From Patescibacteria group bacterium (GTDB lineage Bacteria > Patescibacteriota > Minisyncoccia > UBA6257 > UBA11618), in assembly GCA_043822345.1 (NCBI GenBank), contig JBDRBW010000009.1:1-58468 (forward strand): a stretch of 58,468 nt of DNA, read 5' to 3'. A program made the position numbers and the translations under genes. The first letter of the stretch is position 1, and each line of letters opens with the position of its first letter. Below, piece by piece: positions 2,663-58,468 of the stretch. Below the pieces are notes generated by a model. The model ran no database searches. It saw only the letters and a list, made by a program, of their open reading frames with translations, and was not told the DNA's origin.

Positions 2663-4771
2663 TTACTTTTTCCTTCCCTCAATAATTTCCAGAGCCACAT
2701 TCACTGGCACCTGATCGTAATGATGAAATTCCATACTGAAAGTGCCGCGGCCTTGGGTAATAGAACGTAGTTTAGTGGCGTAGCCAAAAAGCTCAGCCAG
2801 TGGCACAAGAGCGTCAATAATCTTGATACCAGCCCGATCATCCATCTTTTCAATCTGGCCCCGCTTAGAGTTAAGATCGCCGGTCACATCGCCCAGAAAC
2901 ACTTCTGGTACAATAACCTGCACCGCCATAACCGGTTCTAGTAAAACCGGCTTACACCTCTTGGCACCCTCCTGAAAAGCGATTGATCCAGCTATCTTAA
3001 AGGCGGCTTCCGAGGAGTCCACTTCATGGAACGAGCCGTCATACAAAGTTACCTTAACATCAACTATCGGATAATGAGCAACAACGCCCTTCCCCAACGC
3101 TTCTTTGACGCCTTTTTCTACCGGCGAAATGTATTCTTTGGGAATAGTACCTCCCCTAATAGCGTCAACAAATTCAAAGCCAGCGCCCTTCTCTTGGGGC
3201 TCAATTTCTAACCAAACATGGCCGTACTGGCCGCGGCCACCAGATTGGCGGATATACTTACCCTCGGACTTAGCGGAGGTGGTAACCGTCTCCCGATAGG
3301 CCACCTGCGGCCGGCCAACGCTGGCCTCAACATTAAACTCCCGCTTCATCCGCTCAACAATCACCTCTAAATGCAGTTCACCCATACCAGAGATAATGGT
3401 TTCGCCGGTCTCAATGTCTCCGCTAACTCTAAAGGTTGGATCCTCTTCCGCCAAACGGTGTAAGGCAATGCCCATTTTTTCTTGATCGTCCTTAGTTTTA
3501 GGTTCAACTCGAATAGAGATAACCGGCTCGGGAAATACAATTTTTTCCAAAATAATTGGGTGATCAGGATCGCTAAGCGTGTCGCCGGTGGTGGTGTCTT
3601 TCATTCCCACTAATCCACCAATTTCACCAGTATAGATTTCGTCTACATCTTCGCGGTGGTTGGCGTGCATACGCAAAATTCGTCCCACCCGTTCCTTTTG
3701 CCCTTTGGAAACATTTAAAATATAACTGCCTTTTTTAAGCGAACCGGAATAGACCCGGAAGTAAGTTAACGAGCCGACGAAAGGATCGGCCGCCACTTTG
3801 AAAGCTAACGCGGAAAAAGGAGCGTCATCTTTAGCGGCGCGCTCCAGCTCCCCTTCAGTTTTTGGATCAATGCCTTTAGTAGGCGGCAGATCAGCTGGTG
3901 ACGGCAAGTAATCAACCACCGCATCCAAAACCAACTGAACACCCTTGTTTTTAAGAGCGGAGCCGGTAAAAACAGGCACTAACTTTACTTCTATTACCGC
4001 CTTGCGCAAAACTCGCTTTAAGTCGCCAGCGGCAATTTCCTTGCCTTCCAAAAAATCGCTCATTAATCCATCGTCATGTTCAACGATTTTTTCCACCAAC
4101 TCGGCGCGCCTTTTTTCCACTTCTTCTTTAAGGTCGGCGGGAATGTCGTCGCTTGCCTCCACAACCTCGCCTAATTTACCGCCAAAACGGTAAACCTTTC
4201 TGGTTAACAAATCAACCAATCCCTCAAAATTGGATTCTGTACCGATGGGTATCTGCATAGCGACAGCATCGGCCGTTAGCCGTTCTCTGATGGATTGCAA
4301 GCTGTGATTAAAACTGGCGCCGGTTCGGTCTAATTTATTAATAAAACAGATGCGTGGCACTTTGTATTCGTCGGCATAGCGCCAATTGGTCTCCGATTGC
4401 GGTTCAACACCAGCGACGCCATCAAAAACTACTACCGCGCCATCAAGGACACGCATGGAGCGTTTGACTTCAACGGTGAAATCAATGTGGCCGGGAGTAT
4501 CAATAATGTTAATGCGATGCTCTTGTTCCTTATTGCCTTTAGCATAAGTTGGTGTCCAAAAGCAGGTGGTGGCCGCCGAAGTGATGGTAATCCCCCGCTC
4601 CTGCTCCTGCTCCATCCAGTCCATTACCGCCGTCCCCTCGTGCACCTCGCCAATCTTGTAAGAAATGCCGGTATAAAAAAGCACCCGCTCGGTAACCGTG
4701 GTTTTACCGGCGTCAATATGGGCGATAATTCCTATATCACGGACTTTTTCTATAGGATACTTTCTAGACAT
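2663..4771 (-). CDS. fusA: elongation factor G
   Basis: [17 protein letters not shown] and NKLD GTPase motifs. Full-length EF-G-like 702 aa, downstream of rpsG. Confidence 0.98.
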
Positions 4772-5800: not shown

Positions 5801-5845
5801 ATTCAAGTATGCTACACAATCAAATGGCGCATGTCAAATTCAGTC

Positions 5846-6063
5846 GTCATTCTGAACGAAGTGCCCGCCTGCCAGGCCGCCATCGGCTTTGCCGAAGGCA
5901 TGCCGGCGGGCAACGCTGTAGCACTTGCGGGCAGGAAGAATCTTTACCGGTTAAATTTCTCCCGCTCTTAGCGGGACCCCGCCAAGGCGGTGGTAATTCA
6001 CCTAATAAAATTTCTAATCGCCCAAGTTCCAACCCGTCATTGCGAGTGATAGCGAAGTAATCT
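5846..6063. repeat. composite of GTCAT-type elements (family A half, cccgcc..ggcggg module, gtcattgcgag..gaagtaatct unit)
   Basis: gtcattctgaacgaagtg at 5846, aagaatcttt near 5936, gtcattgcgagtgatagcgaagtaatct at 6036-6063. Lies upstream of rpsL. Confidence 0.7.
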
Positions 6064-6085: not shown

Positions 6086-6121
6086 TGTCCAGCATATCCA
6101 CGATCGTGGATATGCTGGACA
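6086..6121. repeat. palindrome family F, copy 1 (variant)
   Basis: tgtccagcatatccacgatcgtggatatgctggaca is a perfect palindrome. It is closely related to the 38-bp copies at 50099, 50913 and 58402. Confidence 0.85.
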
Positions 6122-6155: not shown

Positions 6156-6215
6156 ACTGACAGAAATTGGGAGATCGGCTCCCGATAGCGAAGTTCTTTG
6201 ACGAAGGGAAAAGAA

Positions 6216-6941
6216 ATGGAAAATCTGTGGTGGTTTTTGGGGACAGTTATTCTGTATTATGTTACAGATCATCTCTTATATCACTACTATAACAACCCCT
6301 GTAGAATCAATGCTGAGTGGCTTAGCGATAAAAATCTTTTGAAAAGATTGGGTATCATCGCTCTACTCTGCCTGCCAATCAACATCAACGACCATGTGTT
6401 TACCGTTTTGGGCAATGGCGTTGCCGAAAAAAGTATGTGGTCGGTTTGTTCACTTTATCAAAAGGCGGGTTCGCACGCTGTCTCCGGCTTGGCGCTTTGC
6501 CAAAAAGCCGGTGGAACCGCTTTTTCGCTTTTCAACTTTTTTGGCTATCAACGCTCTGAAAATGAAAACACGATATCTGGAGTTGGTATTGTCAGCGCCC
6601 AGTTTGCTAAACGAGAATCTGTATTGGCAGTAGGGATTTCTGGTTATCAGCAATCACAAACGCAATTCAAGCAAGTAAAACAAAAAAAGCGCATGGGGAC
6701 GATGGTTGGTACAGGCATATCTTGTTGGCAAGAATCTCAGAGTGAGTCTATTGTTGGAGTGGGTTTTGTTGGTTATCAGAATAGTAAGAACGGCTCTTTT
6801 GTCGGGATCGGCGGCGCCGGCCGACAACGGTCGGAAAAAGCCGTTCACGTTCCCATCGGCATCGCCCTTTATCAACAAGTCCCCGGCGCCAGCCGAGTAT
6901 TTGGCGCGTTCTGGCCACTAAAAGCGGTGGAAGAGAATTGA
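6216..6941 (+). CDS. hypothetical membrane protein with degenerate G-x-G-x-x-G-Y-Q-x-S repeats
   Basis: ATG at 6216 follows GAAGGGAAAAG (the ORF opens at TTG 6198). N-terminal TM segments. Repeated units include VGISGYQQSQ, VGFVGYQNSK, GISCWQESQ and GIALYQQ. Confidence 0.6.
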   Translation: MENLWWFLGTVILYYVTDHLLYHYYNNPCRINAEWLSDKNLLKRLGIIALLCLPININDHVFTVLGNGVAEKSMWSVCSLYQKAGSHAVSGLALCQKAGGTAFSLFNFFGYQRSENENTISGVGIVSAQFAKRESVLAVGISGYQQSQTQFKQVKQKKRMGTMVGTGISCWQESQSESIVGVGFVGYQNSKNGSFVGIGGAGRQRSEKAVHVPIGIALYQQVPGASRVFGAFWPLKAVEEN

Positions 6942-10108: not shown

Positions 10109-10175
10109 AAAAATTTAAAAATAATTACCTAATTGTATTTAAAAATTTATAAATGTAAAGGGTGAATAACTAATT

Positions 10176-10201
10176 AAACGGCTCATAGGGGTGAGCCGTT
10201 T
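10176..10201. terminator. AAACGG..CCGTTT hairpin (shared family)
   Basis: aaacggctca-tagggg-tgagccgttt. Confidence 0.55.
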
Positions 10202-10317
10202 AGGATTTGCGGGGAGTAGTGGACGATGTTAGAACCTGTTTTGAGACCGCTACTACCCATTTCTTTATGCCAAACCTATCTTTAAGCTACGCAAAAATCA
10301 ATTAACCTTTTTGATAA

Positions 10318-23377: not shown

Positions 23378-23387
23378 GTAAATAAAT

Positions 23388-23412
23388 AAACGGTCGCCTA
23401 AGGCGACCGTTT
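23388..23412. terminator. AAACGG..CCGTTT hairpin (shared family)
   Basis: aaacggtcgcc-taa-ggcgaccgttt. Essentially the same hairpin occurs at 38601 and 57466. Confidence 0.65.
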
Positions 23413-23434
23413 ATTTATTTGGCTAAAATGCGTT

Positions 23435-24820: not shown

Positions 24821-24928
24821 TTTTTAATAATATATTTTCTAAATTATTTTTTCAAGAAAAAGATTCTCGTAATCGCACACGACTATCCAAAGAACCATCC
24901 CGTGACTAAGTTAAAAGTCTTATAAAAT

Positions 24929-24956
24929 TAAACGGCTCATAGGGGTGAGCCGTTTA
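24929..24956. terminator. AAACGG..CCGTTT hairpin (shared family)
   Basis: taaacggctca-tagggg-tgagccgttta, identical in core to 10176-10201. Confidence 0.6.
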
Positions 24957-24984: not shown

Positions 24985-25205
24985 GAGAGAAAACCCCAAT
25001 CACTTTTCAATTCAACAGACTAAAGGCGAAGCGCCTTACTTAGCGAATTGACGAGATGAGGATAAATTTCTCTAGAAAAACAAGCTGTTTGAGTTCCAAT
25101 CTTTGATTGGGCGAGTTCTTGTTTTTCTTAGAAATTTATTTGAAGCGAGGAAAATGAGCTTAGTAATAAAGCGGTCTGTTGAATGAAAAGTGATTGGGTT
25201 TTCTC
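24985..25205. repeat. large composite hairpin element, family D copy 2 (candidate structured RNA in the groEL 3' region)
   Basis: An imperfect outer stem of about 30 bp (24985-25020 / 25174-25205). It shares blocks with 2337-2655: agactaaaggcgaagcgc.ttacttagc, gaaaaacaagctgtttgagt, gagttcttgtttttctta and gcttagtaataaagcggtct. Confidence 0.7.
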
Positions 25206-32974: not shown

Positions 32975-34887
32975 TTGTAATTTTTTACATCTTTAACGCC
33001 GATCGCAGGATAAAGCGCTTCTAATGATTGCTGTCGCTCTTTTAATCTTCTTTGCGCTTCTACGGAGTTATTTTCTATCCATTCCTTGGGGAAAAATTTT
33101 TCTAAAGCACAGCCACCCCATTTGCATTTTGACGAATGCAATAGCCACTCCCGAAATCGTTTGGCGATTTCTTCGATCGTTGCCCGAGAATAAGTTTCGT
33201 TATCGGCGCGCATTTTTTTGAGGGCATCAATCATCTTGACTAAATCTTTTTGAAAGCTCTCGTTGCTGTCTTTTATCTCTTTTAAGCAGGATAATCGCGC
33301 CCTAGTGTTGGCATCGAGCGTTGATCTAAGCGCCTGATCGGTAAATGACCAGTTAACAATTATTTTGTCAATAATAACGGCCTGAGCGCCAATATTTTTG
33401 GCGGTTAAGCCAACAATTTTGGAAGAGTCAAGTTGGTCAAGTTTAATGTTGGCACTGTCAAGAATAAGATTGGTGGCTTGGCTATTGGTAGGCGGCGGCG
33501 TAGCGCTAAAACCAAAATGGTTAGTTTGAACGGAGCCGTCGCTCATAATAAAAGTGAGGCCAACAAGGGCGCCGGACATAGTTTTATTAAAATTAAGGAT
33601 GAGGTTGTAACTTTTACCGGGATTGAGGGTAAAGTTGGAAACATTAAGCGCCTCGCCTGACCGACCGAAACCAACCCACTCCATCCCCAAATTACCGCTG
33701 TAAATAAGAATTTGATTAATATTAACATTCAATCCTAAGGACTGGTTAAAGACCTGTATAACGCTCGTGTTTTCTTTAAATTGCTCTTCTAATAATCCAA
33801 TCATTGCGTCTAGCTTAGCCAAATCTTCAACAGTTGGTCCAACGCTATCGGGCGGTTCTTGGGGCAGCGGCACCTGGGCCACCGCCGGTAGATTATCAAT
33901 TGCGCAAGGATCATCATCTTGATTAGTGGGTGGTTTCGGCTGTGGTTTGAAAGCGAGACATTGTTTTTTGGCGTCAGCTGTTATAGTAACCGTGCAATTA
34001 AGAAGCGGTTTACCGCCATTATATTGTTTTTCATATGCCTCCCGTACCGGCTCAAAGATATTTTTCGGCGGACCAGAGTTAATAATACTTTCCGCAGAAA
34101 TATTAACAGGTTTTCCATTGACAGTTATTGCAAACTCATCATCGCTCATCCTCTTGATGTTAGTAATCTTCAGTTCGCACTTTTCCGGTGGCGGCTGGGG
34201 CTTGGGCTCGGTTGCCGGCGGTGGTGTTATTTTGCACTGTTGAAATCGCTGAAAATCTTTAATTCTTTGGGCAGCCGCTTGAAGTTCGTTGTTATAGTAT
34301 GTCCGTTCCCCATCAGTCATATAAGCGTCCCATATGCTATTAATAAGCGGTTTGGTATTTTTCAGATACCCTTCAAATTGGCGAAGGGCATTCTGAATTT
34401 TCTGGGACTGAGATACCGAATAGCGAACAACTTGATCGATATATTGTTTGTCGGCCGCGGTAAACTCACCGGTCGTAGTTCTTGTTTGAATCACTCCCAA
34501 ATTTTCTATTGCCCCCGGCTTATCACCTTGACCAACAAGATCGCTTTGTAACTGTTTGAGTGTGCTGATTATATTTTGCTGGTGCTGGATAATATTTGAT
34601 CTGATTGCCCTCTCTTTACCCGCGCCAATACCTCTGGCTTGGTTTATTTTTTGCCGCTGCTCTTGTATTTTTTGATTTAGGTCTCTTATGCCAACATTAG
34701 TTTCGTTAACGCCTTTTTTAAGGCGATTAACGATGTCGTCTATAGTTACGGTACATCCCCCTTGTTGGGCAAAAACAAAACCCGACATTGACCAAATTAA
34801 TACCAACAAAACCAATACTGCGATAAGTATTGACAAAATTATTATTTTATGATATAATTGCATTGGAAGATTAAATTTACCCGTCAT
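32956..34887 (-). CDS. membrane-anchored coiled-coil/Pro-rich protein with C-terminal Cys motifs
   Basis: TM helix, coiled coil, PPPATEPKPQPPPEKC, and a C-terminal CKWGGC ... CPICK. Overlaps the next gene by 19 nt. Confidence 0.6.
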   Translation of the reverse strand: MTGKFNLPMQLYHKIIILSILIAVLVLLVLIWSMSGFVFAQQGGCTVTIDDIVNRLKKGVNETNVGIRDLNQKIQEQRQKINQARGIGAGKERAIRSNIIQHQQNIISTLKQLQSDLVGQGDKPGAIENLGVIQTRTTTGEFTAADKQYIDQVVRYSVSQSQKIQNALRQFEGYLKNTKPLINSIWDAYMTDGERTYYNNELQAAAQRIKDFQRFQQCKITPPPATEPKPQPPPEKCELKITNIKRMSDDEFAITVNGKPVNISAESIINSGPPKNIFEPVREAYEKQYNGGKPLLNCTVTITADAKKQCLAFKPQPKPPTNQDDDPCAIDNLPAVAQVPLPQEPPDSVGPTVEDLAKLDAMIGLLEEQFKENTSVIQVFNQSLGLNVNINQILIYSGNLGMEWVGFGRSGEALNVSNFTLNPGKSYNLILNFNKTMSGALVGLTFIMSDGSVQTNHFGFSATPPPTNSQATNLILDSANIKLDQLDSSKIVGLTAKNIGAQAVIIDKIIVNWSFTDQALRSTLDANTRARLSCLKEIKDSNESFQKDLVKMIDALKKMRADNETYSRATIEEIAKRFREWLLHSSKCKWGGCALEKFFPKEWIENNSVEAQRRLKERQQSLEALYPAIGVKDVKNYKCPICK

Positions 34888-34977
34888 CCTGAACGAAGTG
34901 AAGGATCTTTAAAAGATTCTTCCTGCCCGCAATCGCTACGCCCAAGCGTTGCAGGCGGGCGCAGAGCTCAGAATGAC
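34883..34977. repeat. family A palindromic element with nested ctgcccgc..gcgggc module
   Basis: gtcatcctgaacgaagtgaaggatct-ttaaa-agattcttc[ctgcccgc...gcaggcgggc]..ctcagaatgac. Confidence 0.8.
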
Positions 34978-36506: not shown

Positions 36507-38381
36507 GAGCAATTCCTTAAAAATAGAGGTGGGGATTTGGACTTGAGATTTTTCGGCGCGTTCTTGAAGTTTAGCTTTTCCTTTTTGTTGTTTTTTCCAA
36601 AGTTTCATCTTGCGGGTGCGGTCGCCGCCGTAAAGATAGCCGGTAACGTCTTTTTTAAACGCCGAGATGGTCTCGCGGGCAATAATCTTGCCACCCACCG
36701 CCGCCTGAATAGCTTGGACGAACTGCTGGCGCGGCAATAATTCTTTTAACTTTTCCACAGTTTGCCGCGCCTCTCTTTCCAGTTTTTCCTTGGGAACAAT
36801 TCTGGTCAGCCCCGGCACCAGATGGCCGGCGATTAAAATCTCCAACTTTTCCAGATTACTTTTTTCATAACCAATTAGCTTATAACTTAAAGAAGCATAG
36901 CCCTCGGACAAGGATTTTAATTTATCATCAAAATCGCTGATGAGGTCGGCTAGAGGCAGTTTGGCAGTCACTAAAACCAGCTTTTCACCAATATTTTCCG
37001 TCTCAAAACCGCTTAAACGAAACCATTTCTTCAAAGACATCACACCGCCCAAATACTGCGGCGGCGCTACAATCTCCAACTCCACAACCGGCTCCTCCGC
37101 TTCGTCATACTCCGCCGGAAAATCTTTCGGACTATTAATGGGTTTACGACACCCATTAATGGAAATTTGGTAGGTGACGGAGGGGAAGCTGTGAATGGTG
37201 GCGATTTTGAACTCTTTTTGCAAACGCTCGGCGGTAATTTCAAAATGCAATTGTCCCAAAAAACCGCACTTAAACCCTTTGCCCAACAGCTCGCTTTTAT
37301 CTTGCTCAAAAAATAGTGATGAATCGGTAAGCTTTAGTTTTTCTAAAGCATTTTTTAAATCGCTATACTCACTACTATCTTCAGGATAAAAAGAAACAAA
37401 CACCACCGGCTGGGACTCAGCATAGCCCGGCAATACCAGCTTATCAAAATTTGAAATTTGAAATTTAAAATTTGAAATTATCGTATCTCCTATTTTAACT
37501 GGGCCAATATCCTTAATGCCAGTAGCGATGTAGCCAATTTCACCGGCGTTTAATTCTTTGGAAGATTTTAATTGGGGATGAAAATAGCCAACTTCTTTTA
37601 TTTTGGCGCTAGTTTTAGTTGCTAAAAATTGTATTTGATTTCCATTATTAAACCCACCATTAAAAATCCGCACAAAAGCAATCACCCCTCTATGGTCATC
37701 ATAAAGAGAGTCGAAGATAAGGGCGCGAGACACTCCGTCAGATCCTTCACTATGTTCTGGATGACGTGGTGAAGGGACTTTCTTAATAACTTCTTCCAAC
37801 AACTCCTCCACTCCTTCGCCAGTTTTGCCGGAAATTTTTAAAATCTCCTCCGGTTCAACTTTTAGAAGATCGGCGAGGGATTGGACAACCTCCTCCAGAT
37901 CGGGTGGATTGAGATCTATTTTACTAACAGCGCCAATAATGGTCAGGCCGGCTTTTTTGGCGGCATTAAAATTAGCCAGGGTTTGCGCCTGAATTCCTTG
38001 AGTAACATCTACCAGTAAAATCGCTCCCTCAACCGCCGCCAACGCCCGTGAGACCTCGTAAGAGAAATCAGAATGGCCGGGGGTGTCTATTAGATTTAGA
38101 ATGTATAGGCCATTGTCATTCTGAGTTCCGGCTTTAGCCGTGAACGAAGAATCTTTTACAGATCCTTCACTGTGTTCAGGATGACTAAAAGTGTAGTTCA
38201 TCCGCACTGGCGCCATTTTAATGGTAATCCCCCGCTCGCGTTCCGATTCCAGCCGATCCAAATACTGCGGCTTCATCTGCCGCTTTTCTATCGTGCCGGT
38301 AATCTCCAGCATCCGATCAGCCAGAGTTGATTTACCGTGATCAACATGGCTGATAATAACAAAGTTTCTGATATTGTTCAT
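36498..38381 (-). CDS. lepA: translation elongation factor 4 (LepA) carrying two repeat-derived in-frame insertions
   Basis: MNNIRNFVIISHVDHGKST, DTPGH. The ORF opens at TTG 38393, but the ATG at 38381 matches the canonical N-terminus. Confidence 0.95.
   Translation of the reverse strand: MNNIRNFVIISHVDHGKSTLADRMLEITGTIEKRQMKPQYLDRLESERERGITIKMAPVRMNYTFSHPEHSEGSVKDSSFTAKAGTQNDNGLYILNLIDTPGHSDFSYEVSRALAAVEGAILLVDVTQGIQAQTLANFNAAKKAGLTIIGAVSKIDLNPPDLEEVVQSLADLLKVEPEEILKISGKTGEGVEELLEEVIKKVPSPRHPEHSEGSDGVSRALIFDSLYDDHRGVIAFVRIFNGGFNNGNQIQFLATKTSAKIKEVGYFHPQLKSSKELNAGEIGYIATGIKDIGPVKIGDTIISNFKFQISNFDKLVLPGYAESQPVVFVSFYPEDSSEYSDLKNALEKLKLTDSSLFFEQDKSELLGKGFKCGFLGQLHFEITAERLQKEFKIATIHSFPSVTYQISINGCRKPINSPKDFPAEYDEAEEPVVELEIVAPPQYLGGVMSLKKWFRLSGFETENIGEKLVLVTAKLPLADLISDFDDKLKSLSEGYASLSYKLIGYEKSNLEKLEILIAGHLVPGLTRIVPKEKLEREARQTVEKLKELLPRQQFVQAIQAAVGGKIIARETISAFKKDVTGYLYGGDRTRKMKLWKKQQKGKAKLQERAEKSQVQIPTSIFKELLKK
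37740..37765. repeat. family A half element inside lepA
   Basis: agatccttcactatgttctggatgac encodes RHPEHSEGS. Confidence 0.75.
38115..38185. repeat. family A full element inside lepA
   Basis: gtcattctgag...gaagaatctttt-aca-gatccttcactgtgttcaggatgac encodes HPEHSEGSVKDSSFTAKAGTQND. Confidence 0.8.
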
Positions 38382-38492: not shown

Positions 38493-38600
38493 GTGAATGC
38501 CAAACGTAGTGGGTATATTTATCGCGGAGTTATTGTTTGGTTGTCTGCAGCTTTTTTAATAATTGGCATAATTGTCGCCGCAATTCTGAGTGCTCATTGA
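38493..38600 (+). CDS. hypothetical 35-aa membrane peptide
   Basis: GTG 5 nt after AAGGGGG: MNAKRSGYIYRGVIVWLSAAFLIIGIIVAAILSAH. A terminator follows. An alternative 20-aa frame starts at ATG 38497. Confidence 0.4.
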   Translation: MNAKRSGYIYRGVIVWLSAAFLIIGIIVAAILSAH

Positions 38601-38628
38601 AAACGGTCGCCTAAGGCGACCGTTTTTT
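38601..38628. terminator. AAACGG..CCGTTT hairpin plus T run
   Basis: aaacggtcgcc-taa-ggcgaccgtttttt, between convergent genes. Confidence 0.7.
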
Positions 38629-39154
38629 ATTCCAAAATCCCATCTAAATTAGTGTCGTAGAGAATTGCCTCGTTAATAAGACGATAATTTAATAGTTCTT
38701 CATCTTTAAACCAAAGCCCAATCTCTTTTTTGGCGTTTTTGGACTCATCAGAAGCATGAATAATATTACGCACTGCCCGACTATCCCGATCGGCCATTTG
38801 ATAAGAATCAATGGTAAAATCACCACGAATGGTGCCGACGTCTGAATTTAACGGCTCGGTTTTTCCCACTAGCTTGCGAACAATACCAACAGCATGGGCG
38901 CCCTGCCAAGCCATCGCCACCACCGGTCCGGAAGACATAAATTTTTTTAGATTTTCTAGTACTTCTTTACCGGTTCTGCCCAACCATTCCGGATCAACGG
39001 TATAATGTTTTTCAATAAAATCCGGCGTGGGAATAATCATCTTCATACCCACTAATTTAAGCCCGCTTCTTTCAAAGCGGCTAATAATTTCGCCGATTAA
39101 ACCGCGTTGGATGCCATCGGGTTTTATAAGCACTAATGTTTGTTCGTTTTGCAT
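38627..39154 (-). CDS. ndk: nucleoside diphosphate kinase
   Basis: LVLIKPDGIQRGLIGEIISRFE, GTIRGDF, NIIHASD. The ATG at 39154 is preferred; the ORF-track GTG at 39169 lies inside a repeat. Confidence 0.9.
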   Translation of the reverse strand: MQNEQTLVLIKPDGIQRGLIGEIISRFERSGLKLVGMKMIIPTPDFIEKHYTVDPEWLGRTGKEVLENLKKFMSSGPVVAMAWQGAHAVGIVRKLVGKTEPLNSDVGTIRGDFTIDSYQMADRDSRAVRNIIHASDESKNAKKEIGLWFKDEELLNYRLINEAILYDTNLDGILE

Positions 39155-39155
39155 A

Positions 39156-40568
39156 TTAAGATTCTTCACTTCGTTCAGAATGACGGATTGAAAGACCTAA
39201 TTCGTCTAATTGTTCTTTACTCGCTTCGCTGGGGGCATCCATCATTAAATCACGGGCGTCGCCAGTTTTAGGAAAGGCGATGACTTCGCGAATATTGGGC
39301 TCGTCATTAAGAATAGCAACTAGCCGGTCAATACCGGCGGCAATCCCGCCATGAGGCGGAGCGCCAAAACCCAACGCCGCCAGCATATGACCAAAATTAG
39401 ATTTTATTTGGTCGTTTTTAACGCCAATTATTTGCAACACTTTTTTGAGTACTTTGGGATTGTGGCTACGAATACTGCCACCGGCCACCTCCTGTCCATT
39501 AAGCACTAAGTCGTACTGGTTGGTGATAATCTTGCCAATATTTTTCTCCTCCATTAACCATTGCTCATGTTCTTTAAGAGGCGCGGAGAAAGGATTGTGG
39601 GTAAATGTCCATTTGTCTTCTTTTGTTTTTTCGAAAAATGGGAAATTGGTTACCCAAGCGAAAGCCAACTCATCTTTGTCGTCTTTATTTTTGCGCAAGT
39701 CCGGCGAGTCGGTTTTGTATTTTTTTATTACATCAGCGTACTTCAGGCGAGGAAACGGCTTTTTGGTAAGTTTTTTGTGGGGAAAAAGTTTTTCCACCAT
39801 TTCAATAAACAAGCCCTCAATAACACCCATTACATCTTCTTTCTCCACAAATGACATTTCTAAGTCCAATTGAGTAAATTCCGGCTGGCGGTCGCCGCGA
39901 GTGTCTTCATCGCGAAAGCAACGGGCTATTTGAAAATACTTCTCCAACCCCGCCACCATCAATAATTGCTTATATTGCTGAGGAGCTTGAGGCAAGGCGT
40001 AGAACTTGCCGGGGTAGATACGGGAAGGCACAAGAAAATCACGGGCGCCCTCAGGGGTGGATTTGGAAATAATTGGTGTTTCTATTTCTATAAACTCCTG
40101 ATCGCTTAAATAATCCCTGATGAGTTTATTAATGGCATGGCGGCTACGCATATTTTTTTGCATCCGAGGACGGCGTAAATCAAGATAACGATACCGCAAG
40201 CGGCTTTCCTCGCCAATTTCCCTGCCGTCGGTATCAACAGCAATAGGCGGCGTTTCTGCTTTGTTTAACACCTCCAGATTTTCTACCAACACCTCCCATT
40301 TACCTGATTTAAGTTCAGTATTGATTAAATCCTTGGGACGTTTGTTGACTTTGCCGGTAATTTTAACCACCCATTCGGACCGTAATTCATCGGCCTGGCT
40401 AAATAACACTTTTTCTTTAGCGGTAAAAACACACTGCGCCAATCCGCTTTTATCCCTCAAATCTATAAAAATTATCTTGCCGTGGTCACGCCGAGCGCCC
40501 ACCCAGCCCATCAATATAACTTTTTTGCCCTCTTGTTTGCCGATGTCGGCAGTAAGTGTTCTTTGCAT
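39156..40568 (-). CDS. aspS: aspartate--tRNA ligase, bacterial type without GAD insertion
   Basis: QSPQ-like QAPQQYKQLLMV, FRDEDTRGDRQPEFTQLD (motif 2), GGIAAGIDR (motif 3). 470 aa. Confidence 0.93.
   Translation of the reverse strand: MQRTLTADIGKQEGKKVILMGWVGARRDHGKIIFIDLRDKSGLAQCVFTAKEKVLFSQADELRSEWVVKITGKVNKRPKDLINTELKSGKWEVLVENLEVLNKAETPPIAVDTDGREIGEESRLRYRYLDLRRPRMQKNMRSRHAINKLIRDYLSDQEFIEIETPIISKSTPEGARDFLVPSRIYPGKFYALPQAPQQYKQLLMVAGLEKYFQIARCFRDEDTRGDRQPEFTQLDLEMSFVEKEDVMGVIEGLFIEMVEKLFPHKKLTKKPFPRLKYADVIKKYKTDSPDLRKNKDDKDELAFAWVTNFPFFEKTKEDKWTFTHNPFSAPLKEHEQWLMEEKNIGKIITNQYDLVLNGQEVAGGSIRSHNPKVLKKVLQIIGVKNDQIKSNFGHMLAALGFGAPPHGGIAAGIDRLVAILNDEPNIREVIAFPKTGDARDLMMDAPSEASKEQLDELGLSIRHSERSEES
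39158..39184. repeat. family A half element forming the aspS 3' end
   Basis: aagattcttcacttcgttcagaatgac encodes RHSERSEES plus the stop. Confidence 0.75.
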
Positions 40569-49332: not shown

Positions 49333-49406
49333 GCCCCGTTAGCTCAGCCTGGTAGAGCAGTTGCCTTTTAAGCAAATGGTCGTAGGTTCAAATCCTACAC
49401 GGGGCA
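49333..49406 (+). tRNA. tRNA-Lys (UUU)
   Basis: Folded by hand: acceptor GCCCCGT/ACGGGGC, D arm GCTC..GAGC, anticodon loop CTTTTAA, T arm GTAGG-TTCAAAT-CCTAC, discriminator A. Confidence 0.9.
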
Positions 49407-49410
49407 CAAA

Positions 49411-49480
49411 GCGGACATTTTTATTTTCACCTCGCTGCCCGCAGTAAGCAAATGGTCGTAGGTTCGAATCCTAGTCCGCA
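49411..49480 (+). pseudogene. degenerate tRNA-like remnant / duplicated tRNA-Lys 3' half
   Basis: 49445-49473 repeats tRNA-Lys 49369-49397 with one mismatch. GCGGAC/GTCCGC could pair as an acceptor stem, but there is no D arm or anticodon stem. Confidence 0.5.
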
Positions 49481-49976: not shown

Positions 49977-50006
49977 ACATCTCTCACGGAGGCACACACC
50001 ACAATG

Positions 50007-50042
50007 GCCTCTCCCGCATTCGTTGCCGGAGGGGCTTTTTTT
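50007..50042 (+). terminator. intrinsic terminator
   Basis: Stem gcctctcc...ggaggggc plus a T run. Confidence 0.7.
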
Positions 50043-50098
50043 ATTATCTCATTTTTTATCTTATTATTTTTATTCCCGCCCCCTTCTTTTTTGCGTTC

Positions 50099-50136
50099 CT
50101 GTCCAGTATATCCACGATCGTGGATATACTGGACAG
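50099..50136. repeat. 38-bp perfect palindrome, family F copy 2
   Basis: ctgtccagtatatccacga|tcgtggatatactggacag. Confidence 0.9.
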
Positions 50137-50175
50137 AATGGGTAAAATAAATAAAAAGTGAGGTGAAAAATGATT

Positions 50176-50883
50176 TTATTTTACTTCACTTTGTTTCCTG
50201 ATCAACTTTTCTATATTTAAATTACCCGAGTGATTGATAGAAAAAATACTAATATGCTTATCCATATCTAAATTGTGTAAAAATTGAATAAAATCTTCCG
50301 GCAATTTAATATTTCCACACCAGACGCTTTTTTGAATCATTTGATAACCTAGGAATTTTAAAAATTCTCTAATCCAATCACGAACAGCCCGATGCTTTTC
50401 GGGTATGTCAAACGAAAAGATAATAATCTTCTTTTCTTTTTCTTTCTTGAATTCACTATTAAATAAAGATTGTCTAGCAATCGTCATTCTCAATTCCGCT
50501 ATTTTTCTCTTTCCTTTTTGGGTTAAAGAAATATTTTGGCTGTTGTCTTTTTCAATAAAACCTTCTCTGACTAGTTCATAAATCTTTTTCTGTCTTTTTC
50601 GTCTCTCTTGTTGATAAATTTTCTCGCGTAATTTTCTATCTCTTTCTTGGGTTAGCGCTCTATTTCTTTCTTGGCTTGCTTGTAATTCTTCCGCCGTTGG
50701 CGTCATGTCCATTACGCCCGTACCACCATATCGCTTGATTGGCTGTAATCTTGGATCTGGCGGTATTCGTCTATACTTTACGCTTTCTGATTTTTTATCG
50801 CCTTCCAATATTTCTTTCGCTCCCTTGGCGATGCTCTCTAAAATAGCGAGCGCGTATTCTCCCTTTAATTTAATTTTTTTCAT
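50176..50883 (-). CDS. winged-helix plus Cas2-fold/PaaX C-terminal-like protein (putative regulator)
   Basis: The middle segment YELVREGFIEKD....ISLTQKGKRKI is wing-like. The C-terminal KKIIIFSFDIPEKHRAVRDWIREFLKFLGYQMIQKSVW resembles the Cas2/PaaX_C beta-alpha-beta core. Confidence 0.55.
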   Translation of the reverse strand: MKKIKLKGEYALAILESIAKGAKEILEGDKKSESVKYRRIPPDPRLQPIKRYGGTGVMDMTPTAEELQASQERNRALTQERDRKLREKIYQQERRKRQKKIYELVREGFIEKDNSQNISLTQKGKRKIAELRMTIARQSLFNSEFKKEKEKKIIIFSFDIPEKHRAVRDWIREFLKFLGYQMIQKSVWCGNIKLPEDFIQFLHNLDMDKHISIFSINHSGNLNIEKLIRKQSEVK

Positions 50884-50912
50884 TTGTTCAAATTTAATCT
50901 ATTTCAATCTTT

Positions 50913-50950
50913 CTGTCCAGTATAACCACGATCGTGGATATACTGGACAG
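50913..50950. repeat. 38-bp palindrome, family F copy 3 (one mismatch)
   Basis: ctgtccagtataaccacgatcgtggatatactggacag, 30-67 nt upstream of the start at 50883. Confidence 0.9.
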
Positions 50951-54048: not shown

Positions 54049-54106
54049 GTCATTTTGAACGAATGTGAAAAATCTTTTAAAGATCCTTCGCTACGCTCAG
54101 GATGAC
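54049..54106. repeat. family A full element
   Basis: gtcattttgaacgaatgtgaaaaatctttt-aa-agatccttcgctacgctcaggatgac. Confidence 0.8.
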
Positions 54107-54115
54107 CAGAGGTGA

Positions 54116-56875: not shown

Positions 56876-56889
56876 AGTTTTCAGTATTC

Positions 56890-56949
56890 GTCATTCTGAA
56901 CAAAGTGAAGAATCTTTATAAAAGATCCTTCGCTAACGCTCAGGATGAC
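56890..56949. repeat. family A full element in the grpE-dnaK spacer
   Basis: gtcattctgaacaaagtgaagaatcttt-ataa-aagatccttcgctaacgctcaggatgac. Confidence 0.8.
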
Positions 56950-56960
56950 AAAATAATAAA

Positions 56961-57419
56961 TCATTTTGTCACTTTTACTTTTGTGGGGCGGATTATTTTG
57001 TCGTATAATTTATAACCCGCTTCTACTATTTCAACAATCGTATCAGGTGGCTGTCCCGACTCAACTGCCACCACCGCCTCGTGAAGCGCTGGATTAAAAC
57101 TATCGCCGATATTGACTAATAACTTTTCAAGGCCGTGTTTTTTTAAAAGATTTTCTAGTTGAGACTGGATAAGCGATAATCCTCTAGTAGATTCTTCGCC
57201 CTGCTCAGAATGACTAACCGCCGTAGCCAAAGTAAAACTATCCAATACCGCCAATAGATCGCCGACAATCCCCTCATTGGCAAATTTAATAATCTCCTCA
57301 AAGCGCTTCAGTTCGTCTTTTTTGTAATTAATCAACTCCGCCTTAGCCCGCTTCCAACCGTCAAGATACTCTTCTTCCTTCGTCAAAGCTTCCGTGGGTT
57401 TTTCCTTATTCTCTTCCAT
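56961..57419 (-). CDS. grpE: nucleotide exchange factor GrpE with repeat-derived insertion
   Basis: ...AELINYKKD..., LLAVLDSF, HEAV......V..GY.L..K.IRP..V. 152 aa. Confidence 0.9.
   Translation of the reverse strand: MEENKEKPTEALTKEEEYLDGWKRAKAELINYKKDELKRFEEIIKFANEGIVGDLLAVLDSFTLATAVSHSEQGEESTRGLSLIQSQLENLLKKHGLEKLLVNIGDSFNPALHEAVVAVESGQPPDTIVEIVEAGYKLYDKIIRPTKVKVTK
57189..57214. repeat. family A half element inside grpE
   Basis: agattcttcgccctgctcagaatgac encodes SHSEQGEES. Confidence 0.75.
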
Positions 57420-57465
57420 AAATATGCTTATTATTATAAATTAATTAAAAAAATGTGTCAAATTT

Positions 57466-57490
57466 AAACGGTCGCCTCAGGCGACCGTTT
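57466..57490. terminator. AAACGG..CCGTTT hairpin (shared family)
   Basis: aaacggtcgcc-tca-ggcgaccgttt. Confidence 0.65.
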
Positions 57491-57522
57491 ATTTCTAGCC
57501 TCCAGTATCTAGCTTCCAGCTT

Positions 57523-58320
57523 CTAGTGTGGTATCCAGCAGCGAAAACCGTAAAGTTCAGCTTGATCAATATAAATACGCGCTAGAAGATTACCATCACC
57601 GCTAGCCATCATGCCATCGTCACCATAACCATTACCAGTCGCATCCCCGTTCCATTCCCAACCATTAATCTCATCAGGTCCCAGGTCATAATTAAGCATA
57701 GTAACATACCACTCCTGAACAGTAGGTAGGCGGCCGCCATAGTTAACAAAACAATAATTAGTGGCATCGTACCACGTCTTTAATTCACCGCCATTTTCAT
57801 CATTATACATACAACCAAGCTGACGACCAGCGCTTTCCACTAAAGTCCAACTGGCATCAGGGCAGGAAAACGATGTAATACTAGGATTTTGCCAAGTCGC
57901 TAAGCCACTGGCGTCAGAAGTTAAAATTTTGCCACCAGCTGGCGCGCCGCCGGTGATTTTAATTTGTCCGGCTACTTCTAGTTTGGCGCCGGGATTCGTC
58001 GTTCCAATACCAACGTTGTCGGTAGACGTTTCTAATCGAACTGCCACGCCATCATCCACCCAGCCGCCGCCTCCGCCGCCTGCCGCCGCCTGCCAGGTAG
58101 CTAATCCAACAACATCAGATGTTAATACGTAACCAACAGCTGGCGCGCCGCCGGTGATTTTTATTTGGCTATCGATAACGACATTACCACTACCATCCAC
58201 GCTAATCGCTCCGCCGCCACTGCCCGGCGGCTCGGAGGGACCGGTAAACGCCCACAACGAACCGACACCGACAACTAGCATAGTCAATAAGACCGCTAGT
58301 AAAACTGTAAAGAGTTTCAT
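57523..58320 (-). CDS. secreted protein with duplicated IKITGGAP...LTSD..GLATWQ module and C-type-lectin/DUF1566-like C-terminus
   Basis: Signal peptide. Two near-identical modules of about 45 aa. C-terminal ...NYCF..GGRLPTVQEW... ends in ...YGFRCWIPH. Confidence 0.65.
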   Translation of the reverse strand: MKLFTVLLAVLLTMLVVGVGSLWAFTGPSEPPGSGGGAISVDGSGNVVIDSQIKITGGAPAVGYVLTSDVVGLATWQAAAGGGGGGWVDDGVAVRLETSTDNVGIGTTNPGAKLEVAGQIKITGGAPAGGKILTSDASGLATWQNPSITSFSCPDASWTLVESAGRQLGCMYNDENGGELKTWYDATNYCFVNYGGRLPTVQEWYVTMLNYDLGPDEINGWEWNGDATGNGYGDDGMMASGDGNLLARIYIDQAELYGFRCWIPH

Positions 58321-58401: not shown

Positions 58402-58439
58402 CTGTCCAGTATATCCACGATCGTGGATATACTGGACAG
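58402..58439. repeat. 38-bp perfect palindrome, family F copy 4
   Basis: Identical to 50099-50136. Lies 82 nt upstream of the start at 58320. Confidence 0.9.
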
Positions 58440-58468
58440 AATAAAAAAATAAATAAAACAGCGGGGTG

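Follow-up and report, generated by a model that had tools for sequence, protein, structure and literature searches.

A 58,468-nucleotide (nt) stretch of a Patescibacteria contig (JBDRBW010000009.1 of assembly GCA_043822345.1), referred to below at its full length as the window, carries a gene for a 235-amino-acid (aa) protein located between two copies of a 38-bp palindrome. We consider it likely that this gene encodes an autoregulated dimeric repressor and that the two palindromes flanking it are its putative operators. An earlier note on this DNA, written from the letters alone, had put forward an autoregulated repressor; this is the best-supported reading, on comparative and structural grounds (homologues have cognate palindromes, and the predicted structure matches PaaX). 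The bracketing of the gene by a pair of sites is a property of the family and not only of the window locus. Since the site-gene-site layout recurs in most of the metagenome homologues examined, each family member appears to carry its own predicted recognition sequence adjoining it.

Palindrome Copies in the Window

The palindrome, CTGTCCAGTATATCCACGATCGTGGATATACTGGACAG, is present in the window in four copies, none of which was matched in 100 dinucleotide-preserving shuffles of the 58 kb. The gene and the sites are as follows (a dot stands for no strand):

50176..50883, minus strand: putative repressor gene, 235 aa; open reading frame (ORF) with predicted winged helix and Cas2-like (PaaX_M) domain
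50913..50950, dot: upstream site, putative operator O1; 38 bp, one mismatch; overlaps the gene's -35
50099..50136, dot: downstream site, putative operator O2; perfect 38 bp; 39 nt past the stop codon
58402..58439, dot: third site copy, perfect; ~82 nt upstream of minus-strand gene 57523-58320
6086..6121, dot: fourth site copy; 36-bp perfect palindrome before gene 6198-6941

The single mismatch of the upstream site is an A for T at position 50925, 7 bp off the centre. The copy at 6086 is a variant that differs from the other three only at position 11 of both arms, by a symmetric pair of changes (T>C and A>G) that leaves the palindrome perfect. Both these changes and the 50925 mismatch fall within what is, as shown below, the loosely conserved inner zone of the site. 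TATCCAC is found in both arms of all four copies. As single strands, the palindromes fold into stable hairpins (-14 to -32 kcal/mol, z-scores -6.5 to -14.5). Outside the palindromes the flanks are not repeated, AT-rich similarity aside. The earlier note had described two copies around the ORF; both are real, and the distances that it gave (39 nt from the stop codon to the palindrome, and 30-67 nt between the upstream copy and the ATG) are correct, but its count was too low.

One flank deserves mention. The ~30 nt at 58440-58468, directly right of the 58402 copy, resemble those at 50137-50165, directly right of the 50099 copy, with 84% identity over the 68-nt unit. The latter stretch belongs to the 3' end of the regulator, so that a paralogue of this gene may follow just past the right end of the window. 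Inside the window, a tblastn search with 48 family members found one gene only and no paralogue.

All four sites have CGATCG at the centre. GATC is rare in the window as a whole (139 observed vs ~218 expected from base composition), while CGATCG is not (17 observed vs ~10 estimated from base composition). GATC methylation could in principle modulate binding to the sites.

Site Pairs Bracket the Gene Across the Family

A phmmer search over 1.84 billion cluster representatives retrieved 1,660 clusters at E <= 1e-3, of which 759 were at E <= 1e-10, so that the family comprises at least 1,660 clusters at 50% identity. Its members are mostly 190-200 aa long, and Patescibacteria are their source wherever an organism is named. 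A word-indexed database held only two close relatives (P0001 and P0002), both from one Patescibacteria metagenome-assembled genome (MAG). In databases, the proteins go under uninformative names: "hypothetical protein", "helix-turn-helix transcriptional regulator", "PadR family" and, in one case, "CRISPR-associated endonuclease Cas2". No description of the family or of its palindromic site was found in the literature searched.

Homologous loci were collected in two ways. First, one genome per species was scanned with the 20-nt core of the palindrome, ATATCCACGATCGTGGATAT, which returned six stretches, none of them from the window's own genome. In one of these, MAG contig L004, a homologue (35% identity over 74 aligned residues) is located between two identical 38-bp perfect palindromes that share the 20-nt core with the window but have other outer arms (TGTGGGGAAATATCCACGATCGTGGATATTTCCCCACA). 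Second, metagenome contigs were scanned at the protein level with an alignment of 10 sequences as the query, which yielded 80 loci. Identical genes were removed from this set and close relatives kept, so the counts below are not phylogenetically independent; gene calls in these loci are simple ORF calls.

Most of the 80 loci have a long palindrome on each side of the gene, and the arm sequences change completely from one locus to the next. Under a relaxed criterion (at least 13 of 18 positions self-paired), 75% of the 59 assessable non-redundant loci had similar sites on both sides of the gene, one upstream and one downstream, while none of 1,038 control placements within the same loci did. 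An upstream cognate site was present in 85% of the 59 loci and a downstream site in 86%, and weaker site pairs are visible by eye in several of the loci that failed the criterion. Even a relative with ~31% identity, from locus L088 and named Cas2 by NCBI, is bracketed likewise, with a convergent fabF gene downstream. The sites are thus conserved, and they co-vary with the protein across the family.

Further sites are sparse. In 393 kb of related loci we found 15 extra sites (about one per 26 kb), 14 of them intergenic; the intergenic regions are of all types, including those between convergent genes and just past stop codons. There was no extra site in 20 kb of L088.

Several observations accompany these scans. 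Two of the six stretches retrieved with the core, L001 (695-746, from a MAG labelled Verrucomicrobiota) and L002 (102-161, from a Saccharibacteria MAG, at the contig edge), hold perfect palindromes of 52 and 60 nt, respectively, that carry the exact core ATATCCACGATCGTGGATAT with other arms; no family gene was found within the 8 kb examined. L001 is GC-richer than the window, and it may represent this site type outside Patescibacteria or a mis-binned contig. The remaining three stretches (L003, L005 and L006) match the 20-24-nt core only and are probably chance matches. At the start of L064 (1-104) there is a 104-nt perfect palindrome centred on the family site, which is probably an assembly fold-back artefact of that palindrome. 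Finally, a distant member of 166 aa (P0166, in L090-L092 from Candidatus Daviesbacteria) is encoded in a purine-biosynthesis cluster, between purE/purC and prs/purM, and its gene has CGATCG-centred imperfect palindromes at both ends. The location of P0166 suggests that some subfamilies are pathway-specific local regulators.

Anatomy of the Site

The paired sites of one gene were compared position by position in 45 loci, with positions counted from the centre of the palindrome. The identity between paired sites was as follows:

Positions 1-4: 94-100%
Positions 5-11: 66-83%
Positions 12-17: 90-97%
Position 21 and beyond: 36-43%, taken as background

As can be seen, conservation peaks at positions 1-4 and 12-17, and the site, judged by this pattern, is therefore bipartite, with two inverted hexamers 22 bp apart and a conserved centre. 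The inner positions show the lowest conservation and also the lowest self-complementarity. The window site reads GTCCAG-N22-CTGGAC, and its parts in the downstream copy are:

50101..50106, dot: outer hexamer GTCCAG; partner CTGGAC at 50129-50134, 22 bp away
50114..50121, dot: conserved centre ACGATCGT; family-wide consensus CGRYCG

Of 81 flanking sites, 57 have CGATCG as their centre; in the rest it is CGGCCG, CGACCG, CGGTCG, TGATCA, CCGCGG (three sites) or TAATTA (one site).

Two further palindromes in the window, outside the set described above, resemble the CGGCCG-centred sites that bracket family members in L021, L036 and L074. One, TGATTACTATAACTACGGCTGTAGTTATAGTAATCA (740-775, 36 nt, one mismatch, CGGCYG centre), is located between convergent ORFs; the other, CCAAAAAAGGCAACTATAATCACGGCCGTGATTATAGTTGCCTTTTTTGG (2442-2491), is a perfect 50-mer, also with a CGGCYG centre, downstream of a 702-aa ORF (2663-4771) that, from its position beside the S7 and S12 genes, is probably fusA. 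These two palindromes may be the sites of a paralogue encoded elsewhere in the genome.

The same conservation profile disposes of one candidate function. In inverted pairs, the core ATATCCACG is similar to the DnaA box TTATCCACA, so that the sites might be DnaA boxes in pairs or serve replication or segregation in some other way (as Ter-like or parS-like signals). The TATCCAC arms of all four window copies and the recurrence of the same 20-nt core in unrelated MAGs fit such a role, and B. subtilis RTP and ParB are site-specific chromosome proteins with sites beside their own genes. However, TATCCAC occupies positions 5-11, the least conserved zone, where most family members differ entirely. 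Moreover, nearly all large ORFs of the window are on the minus strand, and since their orientation does not switch, the window spans no origin or terminus. The DnaA-box reading was accordingly rejected, and we give a replication or segregation signal next to no weight.

The Protein Is Predicted to Be a Truncated PaaX-Like Regulator

The 235-aa protein is, most likely, a truncated PaaX-like DNA-binding protein with a predicted winged helix followed by a Cas2-like domain. Residues 155-221 match the Pfam family PaaX_M (PF20803, "central Cas2-like domain") (E = 1.7e-13; score 50.9 bits, with 24 as the cut-off), and the same family matches all 48 aligned family members. The protein ends ~15 residues past this domain. 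PaaX_C (PF08223) has no Pfam match in the protein or in the 48 aligned relatives and is present in only one distant relative, P0165; by these profiles, the C-terminal helical domain through which PaaX senses its ligand, phenylacetyl-CoA, is absent from the 235-aa protein. The Pfam family for the N-terminal part of PaaX likewise has no match in the protein or in any of the 48 aligned members.

With Cas2 models the matches are marginal. TIGR01573 (cas2) is passed by a margin of ~2 bits (E = 4.7e-6, 26.8 bits against a cut-off of 24.5), Pfam CRISPR_Cas2 stays below its cut-off (20.8 vs 23.8 bits), and in PADLOC Cas2 models alone matched (E = 1e-6). It is because the TIGR01573 cut-off is narrowly passed that some members are named Cas2 in GenBank, and members passing it are likely to represent a systematic Cas2 mis-annotation. 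One of them, P0177 (L088, 10001-10606), has no cas1 among the called genes within 10 kb on each side. Motifs common to the protein and Cas2 are a (Y/F)D(I/V) strand with its Asp, an arginine-rich helix and Q-x-S-(V/A)-(F/W).

AlphaFold2, given 30 relatives, produced a model whose predicted local distance difference test score (pLDDT) averages 78.5. It begins with short helices, a poorly predicted insert (28-63) and a long helix (64-107), whose end is likely the recognition helix; a beta-hairpin wing (110-120), a linker helix and a ferredoxin-like domain follow. The model thus shows the predicted winged helix plus Cas2-like fold. Its top match in a Foldseek search of the PDB is E. coli PaaX (8a39; E = 1.5e-4, alignment of 145 columns), followed by PaaX-like Rv0674 and then by many Cas2 structures (target-normalised TM-scores 0.4-0.58). 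The earlier note had read a wing into the middle of the protein and a Cas2/PaaX-like core into its C-terminus, and the PaaX_M and TIGR01573 matches, the model and the Foldseek ranking agree with it on both counts. Profile comparisons gave fainter signals. In hhalign, the family profile and E. coli PaaX were aligned over the YG-x-S motif, the recognition helix and the wing, with a probability of only 3.8%; against the PDB, the family profile showed weak winged-helix similarity (MarR, DtxR and S19e) and weak Cas2 matches; and a PDB sequence search with the Cas2-like domain by itself gave nothing useful.

The protein is neither a true PaaX nor a CRISPR Cas2. It is not a true PaaX because it has no C-terminal domain, is far under the cut-off of the PaaX equivalog TIGR02277 (18.5 bits vs 264.55) and has no paa genes nearby: none was seen among the neighboring ORFs examined in the window flanks and in homologous loci. 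It is not a CRISPR Cas2 because its Cas2-like part is fused to a predicted winged helix and occurs, in the contexts examined, without cas1 or an array. As the earlier note had stated, the window contains no CRISPR array; a repeat search found none, and Rfam called three tRNAs only. No cas genes are present among the called neighbors in L088-L092, and the window ORFs were not systematically screened for cas genes. The nearest large ORFs look, from their translations, like an Obg-type GTPase and SecD; the flanking window ORFs that were searched matched no Pfam family.

Promoter-Like Elements and Candidate Target Genes

The upstream site overlaps promoter-like sequence. The elements concerned are:

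50891..50919, minus strand: promoter-like element; TGGACA (50919-50914), 17 nt, TAAATT (50896-50891), 7 nt, ATG; no Shine-Dalgarno motif
57523..58320, minus strand: candidate target gene, 265 aa; site copy 58402-58439 ~82 nt upstream
6198..6941, plus strand: candidate target gene, 247 aa; site copy 6086-6121 upstream

The promoter-like element of the regulator gene, which the earlier note had picked out with its -35 inside the palindrome, scored 9 of 12 positions in a consensus scan, its -35 hexamer being supplied by the outer arm of the upstream site, and a similar arrangement recurs in homologous loci. There, with a single exception, the site centre stands 24 to ~105 nt from the ATG. The outer arm often places TTGACT or TGGACA where a -35 hexamer would be expected; otherwise the site extends over both promoter hexamers. 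A -10-like hexamer is also common 6-8 nt ahead of the ATG. The further proposal of a near-leaderless mRNA fares less evenly. It fits the fact that a Shine-Dalgarno-like motif is present in none of 69 family genes vs 10% of other ORFs (p = 0.005), but the statistics for the -10 element, given below, are weak and start-codon calls in the comparison set are crude; together, the figures are weakly compatible with leaderless or near-leaderless mRNAs.

The copy at 58402 reads, on the minus strand, TGGACA-16-TAATAT toward gene 57523-58320, whose product has an N-terminal hydrophobic signal-like segment and an internal repeat and no Pfam match. The copy at 6086 ends 4 nt ahead of a good promoter-like sequence, TTGACA-18-TAGACT, of gene 6198-6941; the product of this gene has an N-terminal hydrophobic segment and repeated G-x-x-G-Y-Q motifs, with no significant Pfam match.

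A Proposed Model of Autoregulation and a Possible Role of the Downstream Site

In the mechanism that we propose, a dimer would bind the 38-bp palindrome as double-stranded DNA, with the Cas2-like domain most likely serving as the dimerization module. The two winged helices would read the outer hexamers GTCCAG and CTGGAC, 22 bp apart, and contact with the centre ACGATCGT would fall to some other conserved portion of the complex, possibly an arginine-rich surface on the Cas2-like dimer. The -35 of the gene's putative promoter lies within the upstream site, and the mRNA would be near-leaderless; binding at this site would therefore shut off transcription of the gene itself, i.e., would result in negative autoregulation. 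The sites at 58402 and 6086 would put genes 57523-58320 and 6198-6941 under the same control.

The downstream site calls for a separate account. In family loci its first position falls anywhere from 4 nt short of the stop codon's end to 93 nt past it. Among 40 loci with a downstream neighbor within 500 nt, this neighbor is co-directional in 23 and convergent in 17, so the operator of the next gene was rejected as a general account. In the window, the downstream site is located between the end of the regulator gene and the strong terminator hairpin (~50006-50045) of a convergent small ORF. Since the next gene is often convergent and a general operator role is hence excluded, the downstream site must be tied to the regulator gene itself. 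It most likely would cooperate with the upstream site; looping or insulation are roles that we propose with far less confidence than autoregulation. Two dimers might bridge both sites, forming a ~0.8 kb loop that encloses the gene, or the protein bound at each end might block transcription entering from neighboring genes. The two sites may make the gene a self-insulated, looped unit.

Several observations weigh against an autoregulated repressor, or at least against its simplest form. The downstream copy is family-wide, and simple autorepression leaves it unexplained; in many cases it is no ordinary operator, the window copy standing between two gene ends. The 6086 site is upstream of the -35 and not over it. 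TANNNT precedes the ATG by 5-9 nt in 46% of family genes vs 32% of other ORFs, a weak difference (p = 0.04). The AlphaFold2 model is of moderate confidence, with a predicted TM-score (pTM) of 0.56. D159, the Asp of the FDIPE motif, is invariant in the family and aligns with the YDV Asp of the Sulfolobus Cas2 SSO8090, a position that we take to be the metal-binding catalytic residue of Cas2; the sequence alignment may therefore leave room for nuclease activity of the family. Finally, many sites are perfect palindromes over 36-50 bp, and copies in the same genome differ by symmetric changes in both arms. These changes need an extra explanation, since independent reading of half-sites by a dimer does not predict them. 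The least exotic account is that template switching during replication "corrects" quasipalindromes; alternatively, cruciform formation may be under selection.

Alternative Explanations

The REP-like, RNA-hairpin and mobile-cassette readings are all disfavoured. The first supposes a system like that of repetitive extragenic palindromic (REP) sequences and their RAYT proteins (REP-associated tyrosine transposases) but built on a different protein, in which the palindromes are dispersed hairpin or cruciform repeats and the bracketed protein is a structure-specific binder or nuclease that maintains or spreads them. The family-wide site-gene-site layout, the further copies in intergenic regions of every type (those between convergent genes and past stop codons included), the divergence of long perfect palindromes by symmetric changes, the stable single-strand hairpins and the invariant Asp equivalent to the catalytic Asp of Cas2 are all as this reading would have it. 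However, the copy number is low, as seen both in the spacing of extra sites and in their absence from the 20 kb of L088, and conservation is found in the outer hexamers and the centre, not in pairing as such. The upstream site coincides with promoter elements, synteny is conserved, and the nearest structural relative of the protein is a classical repressor. A HUH or Y1 transposase domain had no Pfam or NCBIfam match in the protein and no Pfam match in the aligned family. We regard a REP-like system as unlikely. That the palindromes act as extruded cruciforms or single-strand hairpins, with the protein as their structure- and sequence-specific binder or nuclease, appears to us quite unlikely as well.

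The palindromes could also act in RNA, as stem-loops at the 5' and 3' ends of the transcript that serve as terminators, as stabilisers or in post-transcriptional autoregulation through the Cas2 domain, which resembles an RNA recognition motif (RRM). As RNA, the palindrome forms a 19-bp stem (-32 kcal/mol), and the downstream copy is directly past the stop codon in most loci. A terminator scan flagged the 58402 copy as terminator-like, with a weak tail, and a promoter-like site farther upstream (51075-51047) could place the upstream copy in a 5' untranslated region. On the other hand, the upstream copy contains or abuts the -35 and hence would mostly not be transcribed. On the sense strand, G·U mismatches show no enrichment over A·C mismatches (30 vs 24 upstream, 19 vs 23 downstream). 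Most sites are followed by no U-tract, the palindromes tending to start with a T-run and end with an A-run, and no T-run characteristic of an intrinsic terminator follows the 50099, 50913 or 6086 copies. Conservation also peaks in two sequence blocks and not in pairing, and we hold an RNA function to be highly improbable.

The earlier note had offered, as its alternative to a repressor, a small cassette delimited by the two copies. Such a cassette would be a mobile unit of ~0.85 kb with this gene only, the copies being its recombination or insertion boundaries. A single gene between two near-identical sites has the looks of such a unit, the solitary copies elsewhere could be empty target sites, and one related MAG has two paralogues. 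Nevertheless, the neighborhood is kept across diverged members: genes read from their translations as DsbA-like, glutaredoxin-like and sometimes thioredoxin-reductase-like precede the regulator, a 190-214-aa membrane protein follows it, and a 1,250-1,370-aa protein is next in two such loci. In L018 and L033 the upstream neighbor is alike (145 aa, minus strand, ~82 nt from the site). There were no relatives in 2.9 million viral contigs of IMG/VR and no matches in PHROG, no recombinase is in or adjoining the unit, and the sequence past the palindromes is, as noted, not repeated. With conserved neighborhoods and no viral relatives, the cassette is unsupported and, in our estimate, highly improbable.

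Other Repeats in the Window

The perfect 50-mer at 2442-2491 is the central part of a ~325-nt unit (2334-2658) with perfect 34-nt inverted termini (2334-2367 and 2625-2658). Parts of this unit recur at 25066-25177 with 72-94% identity, and it looks like a foldback repeat or one akin to miniature inverted-repeat transposable elements (MITEs). A dispersed repeat family around GTCATTCTGAACGAAGTGAAGAATCTT is present in both orientations, mostly at gene boundaries; examples are found at 5836-5863, 34873-34929, 38136-38186, 39154-39188, 54057-54107, 56880-56920 and 57188-57215. The 3' part of tRNA-Lys (49333-49407), TAAGCAAATGGTCGTAGGTTCAAATCCTA, is duplicated 76 nt downstream (49445-49473, 97% identity), where neither ARAGORN nor Rfam called a second tRNA; the duplicate could be the remnant of an integration site. 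Lastly, GC-rich hairpins with A/T-run flanks occur as three near-identical copies of AAACGGTCGCCTAAGGCGACCGTTT (23387-23416, 38600-38629 and 57465-57494) and as two identical copies of AATTAAACGGCTCATAGGGGTGAGCCGTTTA (10172-10202 and 24926-24956); both are probably shared intrinsic terminators.

Significance and Comparison with Known Systems

Recognisable regulators are scarce in Patescibacteria, and how these bacteria control their genes is hardly understood. In the family described here, the probable binding site of each member can be read from the DNA on both sides of its gene, which provides many predicted, mutually different repressor-operator pairs for testing; if confirmed, they would be a natural set of orthogonal parts and an entry to the regulons of uncultivated bacteria. 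The standard repressor model leaves two things unexplained, the second site past the stop codon and the persistence of perfect palindromes that change symmetrically. Were the cruciform reading true, it would link a protein with the Cas2 fold to palindromic repeats (~36-50 bp) outside CRISPR, in the manner of a Cas2-fold REPtron, and this might bear on how Cas2 came to palindromic repeats.

REP/RAYT "REPtrons" consist of a single-copy chromosomal gene between cognate palindromic repeats, with more copies in intergenic regions and a repeat of its own for each member. The family shares with them the gene flanked by its own cognate palindromic repeats. It differs in that its protein is no HUH/Y1 transposase, its copies would probably number tens at most and not hundreds, and its sites overlap promoters and show operator-like bipartite conservation.

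Looping repressors with auxiliary operators, such as lac (O1/O2/O3), gal (OE/OI) and deo, have a second operator several hundred bp away, and as in these systems, a putative operator at the promoter is here paired with a second, similar one. Unlike in lac, gal and deo, the second site of the family stands past the 3' end of the gene for the regulator itself, so that any loop would have this entire gene inside it, and this 3' placement is conserved over a large and diverse family.

Cas2 resembles the family in its ferredoxin-like fold and in sequence motifs. However, Cas2 is a stand-alone protein of ~90-110 aa, whereas here the Cas2-like part is the C-terminal third of a 235-aa protein, behind a winged-helix half. 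The family gene is flanked by a pair of 36-50-bp palindromes and not by an array, and in the contexts examined it has neither cas1 nor an array.

The closest likeness is to PaaX (PDB 8a39 and 3l09), the phenylacetyl-CoA-responsive regulator of the paa operons of E. coli and Pseudomonas, which has a Cas2-like central domain (PF20803) as the family does, preceded by an N-terminal winged helix such as is predicted for the family. For E. coli PaaX, a review (PMC9493321) gives the operator as TGATTC(N27)GAATCA and reports that the protein acts on its own promoter as a repressor, through steric hindrance. In E. coli K-12, a mismatch-tolerant search at N27 located TGATTC-N27-GAATCg, with one mismatch, directly upstream of paaA, while the paa locus has no perfect match to TGATTC-N(20-32)-GAATCA. 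The PaaX operator thus consists of inverted hexamers with a wide spacing, about 2.5 helical turns (N27), and the family site, judged by its conservation, would have a similar layout (N22). The family differs from PaaX in that its protein has no C-terminal ligand-binding domain, its members are ~190-200 aa long and come from Patescibacteria where named, and its genes, in the loci examined, have no paa genes near them. The conserved CGRYCG centre and the second site past the stop codon are features of the family that have not been described for PaaX. We regard the family as best placed among PaaX-like regulators, in a truncated form that belongs to Patescibacteria.

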